DNA of 64,000 nucleotides from Dictyostelium discoideum (taxonomy: Eukaryota): assembly GCA_000004695.1 (NCBI GenBank), contig CM000153.2, forward strand, positions 4,704,001-4,768,000, read 5' to 3'. Positions 787-14,707 of the stretch are shown here, one piece after another. A model generated the notes under the pieces. That model worked only from the letters and a program-made list of their open reading frames with translations. It did no database searches and had not been told where the DNA came from. A program made the translations under genes and the position numbers. Position 1 is the first letter of the stretch, and each line of letters starts with the position of its first letter.

Positions 787-1221
787 ATTAATAAAATAGG
801 ATTATAATTAAAAAATGTGTTAAGAAGAAAAACTTACATGAGGATCTAATGGCATATTTAAAAAATCATAAGTATCTTTAAACTCTTCATCAATAAGGGC
901 AGTAAGATTTTGTTGAGTTAATCTATTTGGAATATTTCTAATCATTAAAGATGTTCTTGTATCAACTCCACTAATTATATTCTCTGGAATTAAAATACAA
1001 GTTGGATCTACAGGTTCTTTTGGTTCCTTTGGTTCTTTTAATTCTTTCTTTCCTTTGGAATTGGTTGAATTTCTTAATGTTCCATTGTTTTGATTCTTTT
1101 GTTGTGCCTTTTGCTGTTGAATCTCTGATTCCAATTCTTTTCTTCTTCTTTCAAGTTGTTCAAGTTCTTGTTCATTTTCAAGTATACTAACTTCATAAGC
1201 TGTTTGATTATATTGATGTTT

Positions 1222-1265
<44 letters not shown>

Positions 1266-1266
1266 G

Positions 1267-1308
<42 letters not shown>

Positions 1309-1390
1309 TATACTATTATTCATATTATTATTATTATTATTAATATTTGAACTATTATTGTTATTATTATTATTATTATTATTATTAGTA

Positions 1391-1467
<77 letters not shown>

Positions 1468-1747
1468 GTTATCATTATTATTATTATCTAATATAGAACT
1501 ATATTGTGATTCTGCAAATAAATTAAGAGATGAATTTGTTGGTGAATTATTGTTACTATAATTTAATAGATTTGGAGTATTACAACCACTGTTATTATTA
1601 CTATTATTATTACTATTATTATTACTATTATTATTACTATTATTCTTATTGCTATAAACATATGAAGAGTAAGAAAAACTATTTCTAAAATTATTATTAT
1701 TATTATCATTATTATTATTATTATTTATATTATCATTGTTATTATTA

Positions 1748-1829
<82 letters not shown>

Positions 1830-4242
1830 TTATATTATTTAATTGATTATAACTACGATTTAAAAATAAATTTGTAGTTTTAATTTTATTAACAGCATCA
1901 TTTGTTGAAGAAAAGAAAGAATCAGGACCAATTAAATCAATGAAACCAGCACGAATAAAATTTTTCTTATGAGAATCACGTAATTTAACAAAACAAACTT
2001 GAATCATTCTTTTTTTATATTGAGATACCATTTCGTATAGGATTTGAATTGAAGAAGCATCGATTACAGGTATATTACGCATATCGAAAACTATACCATA
2101 TAAAGAGGATCTTTGATTAATTGGTAAATTTAACATTTCTGAAGGATGAGCTAATGCACTACCAATATTTTCAATTCTAAATAGGATTTCTTTAACTTGA
2201 CCGATATTTGCAAAATAAAGGGATTCTTCAAATCTAATGACCAAAACACCATCAACTTGTTGAGCCTCTGGGAAAATAATGATATCTTTAAATTTCGAAG
2301 TTGGAGCATCACCAGGTAATTTACCCAACACAGTGAAATGTGGTGCAGAAGATTGTCTAATAACCAATAGAATCGAAGCACCAATACTAACGACTAAACC
2401 AACCTCGACACTGAAAATAAAGGTACAAACAAAGGTGGCAGAGAATAATAGTAAATCTTTCCAAGCCCTTAGCTTCCAAAGGAAAATAATATCATGAACT
2501 TCAAATAAACCCAATGCGGCCACGAAAATGATAGAGCTCATAATTACTCTTGGTAAATATTGGAAAATTGGCATTAAAAACAATAGGGTGAATAATACTA
2601 CAATAAAAGTGACAGCACCAGCCAATTGAGTTTTTGCACCAGCTTTATCATTTACAGCGGATCTTGTCATTGATGCATAGATTGGATATGCTAAAAATAT
2701 TGAACCAAATATATTACTTGCACCAATTGCCACCAATTCTCTATTTGTTGAAACTTGATAATTATGTTTGGTTGCGAAATTCTTACTAACCGCCATTGAC
2801 TCAACGAAACCCACAATACTAATGAACAAAGCTGGACCAATCAATTGATTGACCATATCCCATCTATTTAATTTTGGTAATGTTGGTATTGGGAAACTTG
2901 TAGAATAATAACCCAACACAGCAATGCCTTTCTCTTTTAAATGAAAGCCAGCTGAAACTGAAATCCCCACCACTACCACCACCAAAATTGAAGGTATAAA
3001 AAAGATTATATGATGTATTATTTTAGTTCTAACCTCTGGACAACATCTCTTTTTAATTTGACCCATAATTAATAATGCTATAATTGAAACGACACTAATG
3101 ATCAATGATAGCTCATTGACTAAATCGAATTTCTTAAATATTAAAGGTATTTTACGCCAACCACTATCCGCAACTGATATGCCTAACAATGTATCCATTT
3201 GATCGAATAGAATTGTAAAAGCCACTGCATTAATGAAACCTCTAATCAAGGGACGTGATAAAACCTCTGAAAGGAACCCAAATCTAAGTAAACCTAAAAT
3301 CAATGAAATCACACCAACCAAAAATGCCAATATATTTGCAGATGCTATCATTTCATCAGTTGTAAGTGGTACATCAGCAGACTCACTTATCTCTTTCAAT
3401 GTTGTACCAACGATTAAACTAACCAATGCTTCAGGACCAACTGATAATTGTCTTGATGTGCCCAACACTGCATACATCAATAATGGCATTAAACCAGTGT
3501 ATAAACCATAGATTGGTGGTAATCCAACCAATAATGCATATGCTAAACTTTGTGGTACCAACATAATTGATGTTGTAACTCCTGCCGTTAAATCATTAAT
3601 TGCATTGGCTCTATAATCATATTTAGGTAACCATCCTAAAATTGGTATATAATATTTAACTTTATTCTTTAATCTTTTAATCTTTTCTTCTTTATTTTCA
3701 ACTTTTTTACCATAATTTTCTTCAAAATTTAAATCTAAATCTAAATTATTATTATTATTATTATTATTACTATTATTATTATTATTATTATTACTATTAC
3801 TATTAGCACTAATTAAAGAAGGTGAAACTATTGGTGATAATGATGGTGAAGATGAACTATCACTTTCAATATTACTATTATTTTGTAAATTCTTTTTATT
3901 TAATTTTGTTAAGAAACTACTAAATGTAAGTGGTGTTTCTTCAATTAATGGTCCTGATTTCAATGTACTATTGATTGCATCCATTGATTGACTTAATGGC
4001 ATACCATTATTATCAAGTAATATTGCATTGTTATTATTATTATTATTATTTTGTCTATTTCTTAAATGACCAGAAGAACTAATTGATAATGGTACACCAT
4101 TATACCTTCCATCTATTTCTATATTCTCTTCTCTTTGTTGTTCTTGTTGTTCTTGTGGTTGATAAGGTTGTTGTTGATTTGAAAGTAATGGTGATGATTC
4201 ATTCTTATCATTAGATGAACTCCAAAATTTCCAATTTACCAT
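484..4242 (-). CDS. SulP/SLC26-family anion (sulfate) transporter with a STAS domain, fused through a long Asn/Gln-rich linker to a C-terminal Mei2-type RNA-recognition motif (RRM_2, PF04059). Two exons: 4242..838 and 744..484.
   Basis: ATG at 4242. Exon 1 is the track ORF 820..4242. It shows SulP hallmarks (YYIPILGWLPKYDY..., LTAGVTTSIMLVPQSLAYALLVGLPPIYGLYTG, GPEALVSL) and a STAS domain (VLVIRFEESLYFANIGQVKEI ... IVFDMRNIPVIDASSIQIL). About 480 residues of poly-N/Q and a coiled coil follow. The RRM_2 start is then TSLMIRNIPNRLTQQNLTALIDEEFKDTYDFLNMPLDPH, ending on a GTAAGT donor (plus acttac 832-837). The intron is 837..745 and ends in tag. Exon 2 continues the RRM in phase (TKVSRGYAFINFKDHMNVYRFHQKFFHTRWKNYNHDKICEINYAIIQGEEAL...) to the stop at 484-486. 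Confidence 0.8.
745..837 (-). other. Intron, 93 nt, GTAAGT...TAG, splitting the Mei2-type RRM of the transporter gene.
   Basis: On the gene strand the donor is CAT|gtaagtttttcttc and the acceptor is aaaaaaaatag|ACAAAAGTAAGTCGTGGTTATGCA. Phase 0 is preserved and domain homology continues across the junction (YDFLNMPLDPH | TKVSRGYAFINF). Confidence 0.8.
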
Positions 4243-4743: not shown

Positions 4744-7700
4744 TTATTTAAATAAATGAGATTTCTTGGAAAGTTTTACAATACCAGTGATAACATCATC
4801 TTTAATACCAAAAGATTTCAAAACTGATCCACCAGTTGTAGAATTACATTTTGAAATGATAACCTCGAATGAAACTGTAGTAGAAGGTTTGAGGAGTTTA
4901 ACGAATATCTTGATAAGTTCTAAAATAAAGAATCTAAAGTTATCAGATAATTGACCTCCAAGAGTTGAATCGAATTTAATTAAAGAACTTCTTGAGACAC
5001 CCAATGCTAAAGAAACCTTTTTAACAGTTTCATAACTTGTTGGTGAATTTACAATCATCAACAAATCTGAATATAAAGTAACTATTTCTTTTTCAAATAA
5101 TTGTTGTTGTTTTTGTTTCATTATATCATTTGATTTATCTTCTTTTTTAGATTTTTTCTTTTTTTCTTTTTCCTCTTTTTCTGTTTCCAATGCCCAACTT
5201 TTTCCAATGATTGATGATGATGAGTTAAAGATATCTTCATTTTTGGATTTTGATAATTTTGATCTTGATCCATCTTTTGACAATGATAAAGAGGATGACG
5301 ATGAAGACGATGATGATAAATACTTTGGTGGTGGTGATACGTAATCTTCATTATCGTCAAATAAACCAAAACCACAATATTCTTCTTCATCAGACTCTTC
5401 TTGTTCTTTTTCTTTTCTTTCTTGTTGCTTTTGAGATTGTAGCTGTGGTTGTGGTTGTGACTTTGGTGGTGGTGGACAATAATCATCGTATTCGCCAAAT
5501 AATCCAAAACCACAATCCCCTTCTCCATCAGACTCTTCTTGTTCTTTTTGTGGTCCTGATTTTGGTTGTTGTGGTTGTATTTGTTTTGATTCATATAAGG
5601 ATTGAGACAATACCCTTTGTAATTGATAATCTTCTTCATCACCAAAAAGACCAAATCCCATGTCTTCATCTTCATCATATGATTCCTTTTTTTTAGGTAA
5701 CGATGTTGGCTTTGAAACTGTTGTTGTTGCTGCTGCTTTTGTTGTTGTTGTTGATGATGTTGGATAGTCACCAAAAAGATCAAAACCCATATCTTCATCA
5801 CCCCACTCTTCTTCTTCGTCTTTTGGTTGAGATTTGGCTGCTAAATAGGAAGCAGGAGTAGAAGAAGCTGTAACAAGAGAAGTAATAGCATTGGGTACAC
5901 CTCCAAAAGAGTATGAACTTCCACTACCGCCGCCACCACTTCCTCCTTTCTTTACTGGTTCGTCTGACCAAGCATCATCGTCGTCGTCGTCTTCGTCATT
6001 TTCAATACAATCAATAGCTACTCTTCTACGACTTAGAGAATTTATTAATTGTGCAGAAAGATTATCAATAGTTTTGGCTTCTTCTTTTAATTTCTCTGGA
6101 ACTGCTTTTAATGAATATCCTCGTTTTATTGAATTCAAAAGAGAACCTTCATCACTTTTCAAAGAGTTTGCCTCTATCGAATTATTTTTTGAAGTTGATG
6201 ATGATGGTGGTGGTGGTGGTGGTGGACCAGATGATGATGGTTGTGGTGGTAAAGTAGTTCGTTTAAACCTTGGCATTCCATCTGATTTCTTTGAAATATT
6301 TCTTTCTTCTTGTAGATTTTCTTTTTCAGGACTATAACCAATATGAGCCGAAGATCTTCTCATCATTCCTCCAAATACTTGTGGAGCTGGTGGTGCTGGA
6401 CTAAAGACATTAGTGGATACACTTGGTCTTGGAGCATTTGGCAATGGTGGTGGTGTTGGTGTTGGTGTTGGTGTTGGAGTTGATGAGAAAGAAACTGTAC
6501 TCATTCTGGAATATCCAGCAACCATTGGTTTACTTGGTAAATTTATTTCAGAGAGGGTACTTTCTTCTTTGGCTTTAGATTTTGAAAATGATGGTGATGA
6601 TGGGGAATATGATGTTAAAACTGGTAATTTGGATGGTTTTGTTGGTGCATAAGATGGTGATACTGGAGAATAGGATGGTATTGTTGGTGCATATAGTAGT
6701 GATGTTGGAGTATATGATGGTGATACTGGAGAATATGATTGCGAAGTGGAAGCATATAGTGGAGAAGTTGAATAAGATGGTGATGTTGGGGAATAAGATG
6801 GTGATGTTGGGGAATAGGATGGTGATGTTGGGGAATAGGATGGTGATGTTGGGGAATAGGATGGTGATGTTGGGATATAGAATGGTGATGTTGGGGAATA
6901 AGGTTGAGAAGCTTGGAAAAATAATGATGGTGGTGGTGCACCACGTCCAAGTGATGTTGATGGTGGTGGTGGTGGTTGTGGTGGTGGTGGAGCACCACGT
7001 CCAAAAGCGGTACCAATATTTCCTCCCCTTCCACCTCTTGATGATCCTATACTTCCACCTCTTGATGATCCTCCTCTACCTCTACTACTATTGTTTGAAC
7101 GAATATTTCCTTCAGGAGATGGAGATCTAGATCTAGTTACACATCTATATTTATCAATTGATATTCCTCTTAAACTTACTTCACCTCTACTACTATTGTT
7201 TGAACGAATATTTCCTTCAGGAGATGGAGATCTAGATCTAGTTACACATCTATATTTATCAAATGATATTCCTCTTAAACTTACTTCATTACTAAAACTA
7301 TCAGATTCACTATCACTTCCACTTTCACTTTGATTTTCACTAACTCCTCCTTCATAATCTATATCAGTATTATTATTATTTGATACAATTTGATTAACAA
7401 CAATTGGTTTATAAGTTGTTGTTGCTTTTTTAATACCAAGTTTTTTAGGAGTTATTGACCATTGTTTAGAAGAAATAGTTGATTCAATTTGTGGTTCATC
7501 TTTTGGTTCATTATCAACATTATTTTCAGGTTGATGTTGATGACGTTGATCAAGGTTAAATTCATTAATTTCTTGTTCATCTTCAATAAATTGTAAACAT
7601 TCAGTTGTAGAATCACGAATTAATTGAAGTAAAAGTGTTGTATCTTTATAAGAATCTTCAGATAAGGTATCCAATTCAGAGATTGCTTTGTCAAATGTAT

Positions 7701-10432
7701 TCTTTGAAATTTGAATTGATTTTTCAAAATCACCATTCTCTTTATAATAGTTTGCAGATAATAATGATAATTGTAATAAAATCGGATTGGTTGGTGATAA
7801 TGAATTTTCTGAACGTTGTAAAGCAGACTTTAAAGTTGATTCAAACTTTTCACACCATTGTTTCTTTGAATATTTATTATCATCACAATTTAATAAACTT
7901 TTATAAACTGTACATTGATTATTCATTAAACTAATAATTGCCTCTTCATTATTTGAATGATTTGTTGATGATTCTAATAATCTTAATAAACCTTTACCTT
8001 GATAAATTATATCCTCTTTTAATTTCTTTTTCTCTCTTAATAATTTACTTGGTGTTGTTGGTGTAGTAGTAGTTGTTGTTGTTGAATCATCATTAATTGA
8101 TAATTTATCAACTCTTTTTGAAATTAAATTATTAATTGTATCTGAAAGTAAATTTAATTCTTTCATTGAAAATTCACCAAATGTATCTGAAATTTGATGA
8201 AATACATTAATTGTATCAGAGAACTTGCTATTTGAATGATATTGTTCAATTAATTTGGATAATTGATCACGTTTATTCAATAGAATTGGATCATTTGGAT
8301 CTTGATCAATACCTTGAGATTTATCTTCCCATGCAATGTATGGTAGAGAATCAACAATAGTTTGAGAGATAATCGATTGAATTGGTGGTAATTTTGAGAA
8401 TGTTTCATGTTTTTCCCTCTTTTCAACTGCAACAAAACTTGTGAATGGTGTTACAATCGAGTATTTAATGGATAGGTCGATGACATCATTCTTTTTCTTT
8501 AATTTAATTAAATCATGTTCATGTTTATTTTGACTATAGGTACCATCTTGATATTCTCTAATCATTGAACGAGCAGCTAAACGATGAATTAAATTACCCT
8601 TTATGAAACCAATCTCTGGTGTATGAACAACGTTGGTGATTAAACCACCACCAGGTGCTTGGCAAATCAATGTTGCACGAGTACAAATACCAGAGAAAGC
8701 ATACATAACTTGACGTTCTTTCTTAAATATTGAAGTTATAGTAGCAGGTGATTGAACTATGGAATTGGTATCACTTGAATCGAATTTCACTGAAATATTC
8801 GACATTGCGGGTTGAGTTAACCGTTGAAGTTGATCAATGATTTTCTTTGGATTTGGACGTTTATTTGTTTGAATAAACTCTGGATAACCACCACCTAAAC
8901 GGCAAATACTCTTTACGAAATGTCTACTACAATGCTCACCAATACCAAATGCAAACATTCTACAATAGGGTGATGCTTTTTTAACCAACATTTGAACCAA
9001 TTCTTCATTGGCTACATTACCATCTGTGAATAGTAAAATATTATGTGGATTGGTTGGTTTAGCTTTCTCTGCCAACAAATAAAGTGATTGTAATGGTTGA
9101 TGTAATAATGTACCACCATAGGATGTTTTTAAATGATTGATATGGCTCCAAGCAATTTGTAAATTTGATTCAGTCGGTGGTACACCAATACCGAAAAGCC
9201 AGTCAAAGGTATCACCAAAACAAACCACATCGAATAACACCTTTTGCATACCACGTAAATTTGAAATAGTGATACGAACTGCACGTAATAAATCCTCAAA
9301 TGCATCACCAGCCATCGAAGATGATAAATCAATTAATAAAGTAACCATAGTATGGCTATCCTTCATAGTATTATCAATATCCAATTTTGGATAAAATGCC
9401 AACATACTTGCATGATGACCTTTCTCATCAACCTCAACCCACATTCTTGGTGAATAAGGCTCCTCCAAACCAATCAATAATTGGAAATTCTTATCTAAAT
9501 ATTGATTATCTTGATTATTTAATTCAATGGTTGCTTTTGTATGAGTACGTTTTATACGAACGTCATGAGTTGGTGAAATTAATTTTACAATATTATAAGG
9601 CATTTCAATACCGACCGAAATGGATAAATCAGATTGTTTTTGTGCCAATTCTGTCACTTGAACAGTTGATGTTACCGATTGAGTATTACTACTTGAGGAT
9701 TGCAATCTTTGCTTTGGTGTGATTGAACGTGGTAATACAAAACTAATATCTAAACCATCGATTGATAGCTCAGTAACATAAACTATCTTAATTAAAACAT
9801 CACAATTTGGTGGTAAATTACCAACTGAAACTGTGAAAACATCAGGTTTATCCTCATCCATTAAATATGCACCATGACCAGCTGCAACTGCTTCACGATA
9901 CTCTCTTTGTGCTTTCTCCTTCTCTTTACATTCACCAATTATATGTTTACCATTTACATAAGCTTCGAAACCACAAACTGCTCCCATTTCATCCAATGGA
10001 AAAACATACTTTGCTTCAATCATATTCTTTGAATTATTTTGATAATGTTGATAAATTGTAACTTCACCAATTAAATCTAAAATTTTACCTTTAACATGAA
10101 CAGATTTTAATGGTATAGCATTATCACCACCACCATTCTTTGAAATTAAACCAATTTCTTGATTATCATCATCATCATTACTATCATCAATTAATGATTT
10201 TTGAGGTAGTGAATTTGGAACTTTCTCAGATTCAATAGTTGGTTTAACTGATTCTTTTGAAATTTCAAGTAATTTATCATTATTTGATGATAATGATGAT
10301 TTTAATATTGGTGGTATTGTTAATGAATTTAAATCATCAAATTCAATTAGGTATTGAATTTTTTGTTGTTTTGAATCATAAATTACAATTTCATCATCAA
10401 TAAAATCAGATTGTTTAACTGTATTATTTGAC

Positions 10433-10466
<34 letters not shown>

Positions 10467-12594
10467 CAACACCTTGAACACTATCAAAACCTTTTGGTGG
10501 TTTTGATAATTGAGTTTGATGAGTTGTATATTTTTTAATTTGACCTAATGCAACTGAACAAATAAACATATACTTTGAAAGTGTTTTTGTTGATGCTTTA
10601 CAATATTGAATTGAAGTGGATGGTTTAACACCAAAATAAATACCACTACCCAAATAACCAATATCTCTTCTACCAGCACCAATTGATGTTGATACATTTG
10701 GTGTTAATAAACCTCTACTTAGTATACCCAATATATTCGATGGATTACTACCATGATAAAGTGTTTTCAAATTACCAACTTCAAAATTATAATTATCTTC
10801 TTCTTTTCTTATAATTTTAAAAATATTTTTAATTTTTATTAAATTATTATTATTATTATTATTATCTATACAATTTTCATTATTATTATTATTATCATTA
10901 CCATTACTTTTTTTAATTGATTGTTGTGGTTGTGTTAAACCTTCAATTTTTGTACCACCTTTAATTTGATCAGTTATACGTTTAAAATCTTTTGAAGATT
11001 TATCTAATTGATTAATTTGACAACGTAATGCACGATATTTTGCCATTTCACCACTACTTGCAGAAGTTAATGTTTTTGAAACACCACTTAATGATTCACC
11101 AACTGATAAAATATCTTTCATTAATTGTACAGATTCTTGAATATCATTTAATAGTTCATATGAATTATTAAATTTACCACCTGGTGGTTTCAATTGTGGT
11201 AATGATCTAAAGATTTCATCGATTAAATCGGTTGATTCTTTACTATCAATTTTACCACCATTACCTCTTAACACTGTTGATAATTGAAATAATGATAATT
11301 CAGCTTTATCAACTTGCATTAATGTAATGTCACCCATTGATGTTTTAATTGAACCTTCAGGTGAAAGGTGAAGTTTACTACCATTACCAAACTTATTACC
11401 CAATGTTGATATAGCTTCATCATATAATATTTTAATTAATTCATGAATTGGTTTTGGAATTTCATTATTAATGTTATTACTATCATCAATATTATTGGTG
11501 GTGGTTATTGTTGTATCATCAAATAATTTATTATAACATAATTCTTGTAATTTATTAGAACCAATTAATGTTGAACCTAATTGAAATTTTGAATATTTTT
11601 TATTTATTAAATGATCTTTAAATATCTCATTATATTGGTCCAATGAATTCTCCAAATTTGTAAATGGTATCCATTCTTTAACTGAATCATTTATTTTATT
11701 TGCATCTAAACTACCATAATTTAAAAATACTCTATAATATGATTGTGTTTGGTCACCACTACCACCACTATTATCACTATTACCAGTTTTAATTAATTCT
11801 AAAATTTTACCTGCAACATGTAATTCCAAACAAATAAAACTTTCAGCTTTTGGTGATATTAAAACATTATGTTTAACAACATGATATTTAGATTCTGTTG
11901 GAAATTTATCGTTTTCAACTTTATTATTATATTTAATTCTTTCATATTGCTGTTGTTGCTGCTCACCATTAGTTGATGATGATGATGATGATGATGGATC
12001 TTCTAATAAATTTGAAAAATCCAATGATTTATAATGATATTCTTTAATATTATATAATGAAACTAATGAATATTCATTTGGTGATAATAAATTACCATTT
12101 GAAATTGAATCTTCTAAATATCTTTTTGACACAATTGGAATATTCAATTTAATTGCCTTTTTAATATTGGATGATAAAGTTTCTAAATTTATATTCTTTT
12201 TTTCTTCTTCATCTTGATAACTATTATTATTATTATTCTTTTCATCAACTTTTATTAAATCATTAAAATCACCACTAAAAATATAATAGTTAATCTAAAA
12301 ATAATTTTTATATAAAAAAAAAATAAAAATAAAAAAATAAAAATAAAATTAAATGTTTCACAAATAATTATTATATGTGTGTTAATAGTTGAATGATTTA
12401 AATTTTTTTTTTTTTTAATTTTTTTAAATAAATAATAAAAATAACAAACTTACTTTTTGATTTAAAATCATTGAGACATTACCACCATGTGATTCTACAT
12501 ATGATTGTAAAACCTTTTTTGATTTTAAGCCACTATTTCCACAATCCAAATAAAATGTAAGATTATTTAACACAGAGTTTTTATTTACAACCAT
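4744..12594 (-). CDS. Giant vault-PARP (PARP4)-like poly(ADP-ribose) polymerase with BRCT, PARP catalytic, VIT and vWA domains, a long C-terminal extension carrying RGG, CTD-like heptads and four P-stalk tail motifs, and a final ~100-aa C-terminal domain. Two exons: 12594..12454 and 12294..4744.
   Basis: Exon 1 is ATG 12594..12454, [47 protein letters not shown], which is BRCT-like. The donor is GTAAGT (plus acttac 12448-12453) and the acceptor is tttttag at 12295. Exon 2 continues [15 protein letters not shown]... in phase into the track ORF 4744..12147, whose listed start is a TTG. The PARP signature is [19 protein letters not shown] ... GIYFG ... [11 protein letters not shown] ... [22 protein letters not shown] is [21 protein letters not shown]...[46 protein letters not shown]. 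vWA is [26 protein letters not shown]...[18 protein letters not shown]. Confidence 0.85.
7081..7290. repeat. Two tandem copies of a 105-bp unit inside the PARP CDS.
   Basis: The unit ctactactattgtttgaacgaatatttccttcaggagatggagatctagatctagttacacatctatatttatcaa(t/a)tgatattcctcttaaacttacttca occurs twice, at about 7081 and 7186. The two copies are nearly identical. They encode a duplicated 35-aa block, EVSLRGIS(F/I)[26 protein letters not shown]. Confidence 0.8.
12295..12453 (-). other. Intron, 159 nt, in the BRCT-coding 5' end of the PARP gene.
   Basis: GTAAGTTTGTTATTTTTATT ... TTATATTTTTAG. Both flanks are phase 0, and the BRCT-like sequence resumes as [10 protein letters not shown]. The unspliced reading hits an in-frame TAA within 30 nt. 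Confidence 0.7.
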
Positions 12595-13095: not shown

Positions 13096-14707
13096 TTATT
13101 TAGAAAAATATTGTTGTTGATTGTATTGTTGACGTTGTGGTGAATTTTGTTGTTGTTGTTGTTGTTGTAGTTGTTGTTGATTTTGTCTAATTATAAATTG
13201 AACTTTTTTAACTGTTGCTCTAATAATGAATTGATCTCTACTTAGTGATCTAACATTTTTAAGGTATTCTTCCAAAGATATTCTATTTGAATGTAATGCT
13301 TTATCTAAGTAGTAGAGTAAATCTTCGATGGTTGAATCATCAGAGACCAATTTTAACAATTGTTTTGAGAGTGAATCTTTAGGACCCAATATTTGATCGA
13401 TATCAATATTTGAATCTGATTTATCATTTTCGTTTATCCATTTCTCCAATTGTTCAATGTTTTCATTCAATTGATCGATTTGACTATTGTAAGTTGCCAA
13501 TTGATTCGATAACTCCTCCTTCTCAAGTAATTTTTTCTTTGATAACTCTTCCAATGATTTGTTATGAGCTTCGAAATCCTTAATCTCTAATGATGTAGTG
13601 TCATAAAATTTCGATAATAATTCTTGCAATTTAATTGTACATTGATCAACCATTTCACTTTTTTTATCAATAACTGGTTGTGGTGGTAAAGGTGGTAATG
13701 GTTTAACTGATGGTGATGTTTGTTGTTGTTGCTGTTTTGCTGCTGTTGGTTCTGTATATGCTGGTGGTGGTGATGGTTGTTGTGGTGGTGGTATTATATT
13801 ATTATTTTGTTGTTGTTGTTGTTGTTGAGTTGGTGGTGGGGGTGGTGATGTTTGTGGTTGTTTTGGTGGGGGTAAAGATGATGTATTATTAGTTTTATTT
13901 TTAATTGAATCGTACGATGGTGGTGGTTGTGTATATGATGAGGAATTTGAAGTACTTGGTGATGAACCATATGGTGGTGGTGGTTGTTGTTGTTGTGCTG
14001 CCACATTATTATTGGTTGGTGATGAACCATAAGGTGGTGGTGATATATTATTTTGTGGTGGTTGTGGTTGTTGTTGTTGTGATACTCTTGTCTCTAATGG
14101 TGGTTTAAAACTAAATGCATCACATAACATTTTTTAACAATGACCCATCGTTGAATTGGAACTCCAACTTGATATATATGGATGATAAACTAATCCCTGT
14201 AAATTTACATGGTGATGATTTTTTACAATCCTCATCTCTGGTGTTGGATCTAAAACCATTGTTGGGAATTCTTGTGGATAGTTTAATGGTACCCAAACTA
14301 TAATTGGTAAATAATAATTAATACCTTTAAAACAAATTGGAATTGTACCTTTTATACATATTAAATTAACTCTATCTTTAATAATAATTTTTAAAAATAA
14401 AATAGTGAAAAAAAAAAAAAAAAAAAATAATATAAATTATAAAATTAATAATAAATTTTTTTATTTTTTTTTTATTTTTTTTTCTTTTTTTTTACTTACT
14501 TGGTATATTTTCATAAAACGGTGATAAATTTGGGAATAAATGAAATGTTTCTTTTAAATCTTTACTTATTCTTAGTGGATCTCTATAAGCTCTAATATAA
14601 TTAAGAAAAGTTGATAGAGTATGCATTTTATTATCCACTATGGCTAAAGTTGGATTAACCATTTGTTGTTGATGTGCATGCATTGGGTATCCATGATGAC
14701 CATACAT
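13096..14707 (-). CDS. tsg101: Tsg101/Vps23 (ESCRT-I) orthologue with a UEV domain, Pro/Gln-rich linker, coiled coil and C-terminal steadiness box. Exons 14707..14500 and 14375..13096. The reading frame is interrupted by an in-frame TAA at 14134-14136.
   Basis: Exon 1 runs from ATG 14707: MYGHHGYPMHAHQQQMVNPTLAIVDNKMHTLSTFLNYIRAYRDPLRISKDLKETFHLFPNLSPFYENIP. It ends on a GTAAGT donor (plus acttac 14494-14499) in phase 1. The acceptor is aaag at 14376. Exon 2 continues NRVNLICIKGTIPICFKGINYYLPIIVWVPLNYPQEFPTMVLDPTPEMRIVKNHHHVNLQGLVYHPYISSWSSNSTMGHC. A TAA follows, and then the track ORF from ATG 14130, MLCDAFSFKPPLETRV... C-terminally this ORF carries ...EDLLYYLDKALHSNRISLEEYLKNVRSLSRDQFIIRATVKKVQ, which matches the TSG101 C-terminal steadiness box EDTIFYLGEALRRGVIDLDVFLKHVRLLSRKQFQLRAL. 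UEV homology (YLPYLHEW versus YHPYISSW, MIVVFGDEPP versus MLCDAFSFKPP) runs straight through the stop. Confidence 0.7.

Follow-up and report, generated by a model that had tools for sequence, protein, structure and literature searches.

What is the consensus repeat of the RNA polymerase II (Pol II) tail doing in the middle of a PARP-type ADP-ribosyltransferase? This question is raised by a gene on the minus strand (4744–12594) of a 64,000-nucleotide stretch of the Dictyostelium discoideum genome (assembly GCA_000004695.1, contig CM000153.2, positions 4,704,001 to 4,768,000 of the forward strand), which is referred to here as the window and numbered from its first letter. The predicted product resembles PARP4, the vault PARP, and its disordered linker contains 15 tandem heptads like those that the largest Pol II subunit, RPB1, bears in its C-terminal domain (CTD). 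On the evidence set out below, the array may function as a selection-maintained imitation of the Pol II CTD which can be phosphorylated and through which proteins that bind the CTD are docked onto the PARP or the vault, an interpretation which we hold with about as much conviction as doubt.

A CTD-like heptad array in a long reading frame

The array lies at 6586–6900 on the minus strand and encodes residues 1750–1854 of the open reading frame (ORF), as delimited by Tandem Repeats Finder (TRF), by translation, and by the Pfam model of the Rpb1 C-terminal repeat (PF05001). The original prediction, made from the letters of the window, had proposed about 14 tandem heptads with the Pol II CTD consensus and a DNA period of 21 bp; consensus and period were borne out, and the count was essentially right. 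Translation of the array gave four exact YSPTSPS units, two units with a one-residue difference, and nine degenerate units; in one of the latter, a 3-bp deletion has removed Pro3. Ser-Pro (SP) sites are present in every one of the 15 units. TRF reported a period of 21 bp and 15.2 copies (73% matches, 6584–6900), and PF05001 matched the host ORF in nine stretches (E = 1.3e-9, 38.2 bits, cut-off 20.3).

All heptads are in frame within the 2,467 uninterrupted codons of a single long minus-strand ORF (4744–12147), and the array is therefore coding sequence, not an intron. Its position is internal, ~610 residues before the C-terminus of the protein. Besides the array, no further SPTSP-coding sequence was found within the window. 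Two alternative-frame ORFs over the repeat (6582–7130 on the plus strand, 182 codons, and 6615–7034 on the minus strand, 139 codons) were rejected as genes, being M/V/H-rich by-products of the 21-bp periodicity.

The array consists of two parts. Six near-consensus units, the last four of which are YSPTSPS, occupy 6775–6900 (minus strand) and hardly differ in their DNA (TATTCCCCAACATCACCATCC/T), a sign of slippage or homogenisation in the recent past. The nine degenerate units at 6586–6774 (minus strand) use codons unlike those of the six proximal units, and this distal part is therefore the older one. Because of this difference in codons, the array is more than a recent burst. A chance origin could also be excluded: when 87 PARP4-like proteins were shuffled with their composition preserved, even a single loose heptad arose in only 2 of 1,740 trials.

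Heptads in orthologous proteins

Homologue searches with the full protein yielded dictyostelid orthologues, the Balamuthia mandrillaris protein annotated ‘parp4’, and then animal PARP4s; the closest non-amoebozoan relatives in this search thus carry a PARP4 annotation. In addition, an exhaustive HMMER search was run with the segment comprising the post-VWA region and the 14-3-3-like domain (see below), and the best 150 proteins were screened for heptads. A homologue search with the same segment returned mainly canonical 14-3-3 proteins, and a query consisting purely of heptads returned two fragments.

At least two tandem consensus heptads were present in five of the six amoebozoan orthologues. 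The heptad counts, which include partial or variant units flanking the tandem runs and can therefore exceed exact-pattern counts, were 7 each for D. purpureum and Heterostelium album (formerly P. pallidum), about 6 for Cavenderia fasciculata, and 3 each for B. mandrillaris and a EukProt entry with dictyostelid-type architecture. Every heptad-bearing orthologue contains at least one di-heptad. The D. purpureum gene is also syntenic, with a Vps23/UEV gene upstream (923–2484 of the extracted locus) as in the window, and this conserved Vps23–PARP gene order supports positional orthology.

Outside the Amoebozoa, the distribution of the heptads is patchy. A PARP4-like protein of the calcareous sponge Sycon ciliatum (XP_065198502.1) carries ~13 heptads at residues 1585–1661, and no VCA or P-stalk motif (both described below) was detectable in it. 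The PARP4 of the mussel Sinanodonta woodiana (KAL3858028.1) has two heptads at residues 1758–1771, and its linker also holds a ubiquitin domain and a long RS domain beside them. In the PARP4 of the amphioxus Branchiostoma belcheri (KAI8502339.1), a single YSPTSPT was found. The latter protein furthermore combines, at residues ~280–1346, a 14-3-3 remnant, the P-stalk-like sequence SESDEDMEFGLFD, FG/FGAP repeats, poly-proline, and a WH2-like motif, and it carries a clear MINT domain. With this domain content, the amphioxus PARP4 bridges the amoebozoan and the vertebrate architectures. It also suggests an ancient origin for a linker rich in motifs that joins the enzyme body to the vault anchor.

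The possibility, raised together with the original prediction, that orthologues lack the heptads is contradicted by these five amoebozoan orthologues and by the two animal PARP4-like proteins with tandem consensus heptads.

Codon usage and selection on the heptad peptide

The heptad-coding DNA was compared between the D. discoideum window and four orthologous loci. Within each species the units are near-identical in DNA, which fits concerted evolution or slippage. The commonest 21-mer is TAT TCC CCA ACA TCA CCA TCC in D. discoideum, TAC TCT CCA ACA TCC CCA AGT in D. purpureum, TAC TCA CCA ACC TCA CCA TCT in H. album, TAC TCC CCA ACT TCA CCA AGT in C. fasciculata, and TAC TCG CCT ACT TCT CCT TCT in Balamuthia. 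Across species, these commonest units show synonymous differences only, including a TCN-to-AGY serine switch, and no non-synonymous difference. The flanking disordered linker is unalignable between the species. Because the peptide is invariant while its codons are species-specific and the surrounding linker cannot be aligned, purifying selection appears to act on the exact CTD consensus peptide.

These comparisons bear on the explanation that the array is a non-functional repeat, namely a 21-bp microsatellite prone to slippage, an artefact of assembly, or a patch copied time and again from rpb1 by gene conversion and tolerated in an unconstrained linker. The near-identity of the six proximal units is what recent slippage predicts, the array changes its position between lineages, and the host genome is very repeat-rich; the window itself is very AT-rich (24% GC), in the manner of dictyostelid genomes, and has many homopolymer runs. 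Yet the array recurs in frame in five other amoebozoans and two animals, in independent assemblies and always in PARP4-like proteins, and neither the species-specific synonymous codons, nor the lack of non-synonymous change in the commonest unit, nor the rarity of heptads among the shuffled sequences would be expected of such a repeat. We therefore regard a non-functional repeat as extremely improbable. This applies also to the assembly artefact against which the original prediction had cautioned, which is very unlikely because the feature is found again, in frame and with species-specific codons, in other species that were assembled independently.

Domain architecture of the host protein

The gene model comprises exon 1 (12454–12594), an intron with typical GT...AG borders (12295–12453), and exon 2 (4744–12294), and encodes 2,563 residues. 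A BRCT_2 domain exceeded the Pfam threshold (E = 1.1e-7) only with the spliced model. The PARP4-type core extends over 8875–10845 (minus strand) and consists of the PARP catalytic domain (10339–10845, E = 1.7e-29), VIT (9778–10110, E = 1.3e-35), and VWA (8875–9345, VWA_3, E = 1.8e-11), so that the host is indeed a PARP, as originally predicted. The H-Y-E catalytic motifs are readable as LYHGS, GIYFG, and DDEIVIYD, judged by comparison with PARP1. The complete order of domains is BRCT, PARP, VIT, VWA, a 14-3-3-like domain, the disordered linker, and a helical end domain, and by this order the protein is a PARP4 (vault PARP)-like enzyme. A Pfam scan of the whole ORF found no RNA_pol_Rpb1 domains, and since the host is without these RPB1 domains, the array is not the Pol II CTD itself.

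The 14-3-3-like helical domain (7606–8238, minus strand; ORF residues 1304–1514; PF00244, E = 9e-20) stands directly before the linker, which comprises ~800 low-complexity or disordered residues up to the C-terminal domain. Its C-terminal helices are kept almost perfectly. The tetrad K49/R56/R127/Y128 is replaced by N/V/K/S in a comparison with human 14-3-3 zeta, and the domain may thus not bind phosphopeptides in the classical manner. An intramolecular phospho-switch between this domain and phosphorylated RSRSPSP motifs or heptads was considered and found unsupported, the canonical phosphate-binding tetrad not being conserved.

The 120-residue helical domain at the C-terminus (4747–5106, minus strand) is a possible counterpart of MINT, the C-terminal domain by which human PARP4 is anchored inside the vault (PMC12280208). 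The metazoan MINT model matched the C-termini of the Balamuthia and Sinanodonta proteins, and left those of the dictyostelids and Sycon unmatched; an hhalign comparison of the dictyostelid C-terminal domain with MINT also gave no match. Several PARPs are enriched in a proximity proteome of the major vault protein (MVP) of D. discoideum, among them Q54LJ4/DDB_G0286613 with 39 peptides (PMC13100048). This protein is probably the product of the present gene, an identity reached by elimination against published descriptions of other PARPs. An exact look-up of the 2,563-residue gene model gave no match, and the D. discoideum protein itself was missing from the homologue lists.

The gene directly upstream of the PARP gene (13096–14130, minus strand) encodes a Tsg101/Vps23-core (UEV) protein. 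On the other side of the PARP gene is a minus-strand ORF of 1,140 codons (820–4242) for a sulfate permease of the SulP type, which includes a STAS domain and long poly-N and poly-Q tracts; its extreme end matches the first 38 positions of the Mei2-type RRM_2 (E = 6.1e-9). This ORF could be an unusual fusion or a read-through of two genes or exons, and the RRM_2 probably continues past an intron.

Motifs neighbouring the array

The array is preceded in the linker by three further features on the minus strand: a tandem duplication of 105 bp (7078–7288, 99% identity), each copy of which encodes 35 residues with RSRSPSP; immediately after it an RGG/RG box (7021–7083, from translation), ~40 residues upstream of the heptads, with GRG motifs continuing to ~6930; and between this box and the heptads a 12-residue proline run (6955–6990; TRF, 3-bp repeat at 6961–6990). 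The original prediction had named both the RGG box and the proline run as preceding the heptads, which holds for their presence and order; its placement of them within 6600–6935 does not. H. album and C. fasciculata also have RGG/RG patches, as does Balamuthia, in which the RGG box is ~440 residues away from the heptads; D. purpureum has only GGGRGVG. RSRSP-type RS motifs stand alongside the heptads in D. discoideum, H. album, Balamuthia, Sycon, and Sinanodonta.

This neighbourhood raises the possibility that the array is a generic low-complexity ‘sticker’, in which heptad tyrosines and RGG arginines drive self-association or partitioning into condensates, in the manner of FUS-family proteins or of the CTD itself, and no specific CTD reader takes part. 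The closeness of the RGG box in D. discoideum, the recurrence of RGG/RG patches in the three other amoebozoans, and the RSRSP motifs beside the heptads of five species would all be in line with such a role, and the CTD is known to co-condense with low-complexity domains of the FET type. A sticker would, however, be expected to drift, yet the exact seven-residue consensus has been kept over very distant species while the codons changed, and conservation of the RGG box falls far short of that of the heptads. We consider the sticker explanation unlikely, though worth keeping in mind.

Downstream of the heptads, poly-proline is followed by a WASP/WAVE-type VCA segment made up of WH2, C region, and acidic Trp motif (5956–6225, minus strand). 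This assignment comes from a profile of five amoebozoan copies of the segment, which was searched against the PDB. The top matches were all WASP-family proteins, with N-WASP at E = 6.4e-9; WAVE1 VCA was matched over V, C, and A (E = 1e-5), and the profile also matched the WAVE2 WH2 and the Arp2/3-bound N-WASP CA. The Pfam WH2 model gave no reported match on the host protein, in which Pfam also found none of the N-terminal regulatory domains of WASP/WAVE proteins (WH1, SHD, etc.).

Alternatively, the heptads might act as a multi-site phospho-regulated spacer, in which the charge of phosphorylated SP sites tunes the VCA, the compaction of the linker, or the association with the vault, and the likeness to the CTD reflects a shared kinase preference. 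The presence of SP sites in all units would suit this explanation, as would the arrangement in H. album and the EukProt orthologue, where the heptads are located between WH2 and the C region and their phosphorylation could gate Arp2/3 activation. However, an S/T-P kinase consensus needs no Tyr1, Thr4, or Ser7, and yet all seven positions are conserved. Moreover, Sycon has its ~13 heptads without a detectable VCA or P-stalk motif, and the replaced phosphate-binding residues of the 14-3-3-like domain leave a phospho-switch within the same molecule unsupported. A spacer function of this kind seems to us quite unlikely.

Still further downstream, at 5356–5810 (minus strand), are four tails resembling those of the ribosomal P-stalk, with the pattern [DE]n-[MC]GF[GD]LF[GD]. 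The P-stalk motifs that the original prediction had placed downstream of the heptads were thus recovered, in four stretches, by PF00428 (Ribosomal_60s, E = 1.1e-19). They cover only the last ~35 positions of that model, and no N-terminal dimerisation domain of P-proteins was found by the Pfam scan of the ORF. The tails occur in two to four copies in the orthologues. They are of interest given that D. discoideum vaults have been reported to enclose 80S ribosomes (PMC13100048). VCA and P-stalk tails are present in all six amoebozoan proteins and heptads in five of the six, in shuffled order. The view of the linker as a collection of ‘borrowed’ docking peptides, put forward in the original prediction, gains support from the VCA segment, which that prediction had not mentioned.

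Such a set of imitated peptides might also serve as bait. Broadly put, the linker could copy the Pol II CTD, the P-stalk, and VCA regions in order to capture either endogenous clients, which would be loaded into the vault or modified there, or the toxins and effectors with which pathogens attack the three machines concerned. We regard this as a decidedly improbable idea; the trait would be an ancient one, because its traces span from the Amoebozoa to sponge, mussel, and amphioxus. A narrower version, for us very improbable, is that of an integrated decoy or guard, in which the heptads, the P-stalk tails, and the VCA would lure toxins and effectors directed at Pol II, the ribosomal stalk, and the Arp2/3 pathway, and the binding of an effector would trigger ADP-ribosylation or sequestration in the vault. 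All three imitated tails are known to be targeted by pathogens: the CTD is bound by viral polymerases and P-stalk tails by ribosome-inactivating proteins, and many bacterial effectors act on actin or Arp2/3. Amoebae also eat bacteria, and the order and copy number of the motifs turn over quickly between species. The strict conservation of a host-like consensus, however, is equally expected if the clients are endogenous.

A putative docking platform

For a role of the heptads in CTD mimicry, as proposed at the outset, several lines of evidence can be adduced. The match to the consensus is exact and passes the Pfam threshold for the Rpb1 repeat; the heptads are conserved in five of the six amoebozoan orthologues, the sponge, and the mussel; selection appears to act on the peptide; every heptad-bearing orthologue keeps one or more di-heptads, the smallest unit on which the CTD can function according to CTD genetics; PARPs, probably including the present one, are enriched near the MVP of D. 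discoideum; and the linker is full of other imitation docking tails, namely the VCA and the P-stalk tails. These features suggest that a vault-type PARP may pick its partners by molecular mimicry.

Mechanistically, the array would be a short-linear-motif platform imitating the Pol II tail. Its Ser-Pro sites would be phosphorylated by proline-directed or CTD kinases, and the phosphorylated di-heptads would be read by CTD readers, for example CID modules, modules of the WW/Pin1 type, and those of the phosphatase or capping-enzyme type. Readers docked onto the PARP in this manner could become clients of ADP-ribosylation, or else partners or cargo of the vault. The original prediction had suggested that the array could bind CTD kinases, phosphatases, capping factors, or splicing factors, or might act as a decoy. 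The linker as a whole would contain at least three mimic modules: the heptads, the VCA directed at actin and Arp2/3, and the four P-stalk tails directed at translational GTPases. Docking through the linker would agree with the general finding that non-catalytic regions target the members of the PARP family (PMC12280208). A precedent for natural CTD mimicry exists in the Nrd1-interacting motifs (NIMs) of yeast Trf4 and Sen1, which are short CTD mimics that bind a CID domain (PMC4186968, PMC7110113).

Several points weigh against CTD mimicry. The mechanism is argued from sequence logic throughout. Vaults and PARP4 are mostly cytoplasmic, and most CTD readers are nuclear. In the Synstelium polycarpum orthologue only a degenerate remnant, YLPSPTSPSNSP, was found, and no heptads were detected in any of the vertebrate PARP4s examined or in most other animal PARP4s; the array is accordingly dispensable in many lineages. 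The array also shifts its position within the linker, where it comes before poly-proline/WH2 in some lineages and after a P-stalk tail in Balamuthia, whereas H. album and the EukProt orthologue have it between WH2 and the C region, and this could mean that it was gained repeatedly as against being continuously retained. Finally, with regard to the evidence for selection on the peptide, recurrent gene conversion from each species’ own rpb1 would be an alternative source of the units and has to be kept as a caveat.

Significance and relation to known systems

The many readers of the Pol II CTD are believed to keep its consensus constant. A perfect multi-copy CTD array under selection in a vault-type ADP-ribosyltransferase, both across the Amoebozoa and in a sponge and a mussel, would imply that part of the reader and writer machinery has a second, non-polymerase client, and a specialist on the CTD or on vaults would find the array surprising. 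The function of PARP4 and the vault is a decades-old question, for which the linker offers concrete candidates as partners, namely CTD-binding proteins, translational GTPases, and actin together with Arp2/3. If the linker were indeed a set of baits, the vault would gain a concrete logic for cargo choice or surveillance. In practical terms, work on Dictyostelium with antibodies against the CTD may suffer from cross-reaction with the present PARP protein of ~280 kDa. The candidate partners lie in a tractable organism, and ribosomes have recently been observed inside its vaults (PMC13100048).

The domain family itself has been described. The definition of clade 5 within the PARPs goes back to Citarelli et al. 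2010 (PMC2964712), and the retrieved passages of Perina et al. 2014 (PMC4245714) report a subtype with VIT, vWA, and 14-3-3 domains (the ‘third type’) in dictyostelids, Acanthamoeba, amphioxus, sea urchin, and Capsaspora and already note a connection to actin. The present protein shares the core of this type, i.e., BRCT, PARP catalytic domain, VIT, VWA, and 14-3-3, and the D. purpureum, C. fasciculata, and H. album orthologues are proteins listed there (PMC4245714). CTD heptads, P-stalk tails, and VCA are not mentioned in the retrieved passages of these two papers (PMC2964712, PMC4245714). In the literature searched, ‘YSPTSPS’ was not found together with ‘PARP4’, and none of the literature on ‘YSPTSPS’ in Dictyostelium concerned the present protein. 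Vertebrate PARP4, unlike the D. discoideum protein, has neither a 14-3-3 domain nor heptads.

Like the RPB1 CTD, the array consists of tandem YSPTSPS repeats in a disordered region, with consensus beside degenerate units and homogenisation at the DNA level. In contrast to the CTD it is internal, in a host without RPB1 polymerase domains, and the PARP arrays are short (2–15 units) compared with the 26 heptads of the yeast and the 52 of the human RPB1 CTD. With the FET family (FUS/EWS/TAF15) it has in common a Tyr-rich degenerate repeat near an RGG box in a disordered region, but the PARP lacks an RRM and a zinc finger, its repeat follows the CTD heptad exactly instead of [G/S]Y[G/S]Q, and its RGG box is poorly conserved among orthologues. 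The other two modules are likewise partial copies of their models: the V, C, and A motifs of WASP/WAVE factors are present and the N-terminal regulatory domain is absent according to Pfam, and the acidic C-terminal tail of the P1/P2 stalk proteins (...[DE]xMGFGLFD) is present without the N-terminal dimerisation domain. The Trf4 and Sen1 NIMs resemble the array in being CTD-imitating peptides outside Pol II; the NIMs thereby occupy a CTD-interaction domain, and for the array the likeness is one of sequence. However, NIMs are single short motifs with a loose resemblance to the CTD that belong to the nuclear termination machinery, whereas the array offers multiple copies, with perfect consensus units, within an ADP-ribosyltransferase. 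The domain family has thus been known since 2014, and what appears to be new is a CTD-like array in a PARP4-like protein, which falls within the known phenomena of CTD mimicry by short linear motifs and of diversity among PARP4 linkers.

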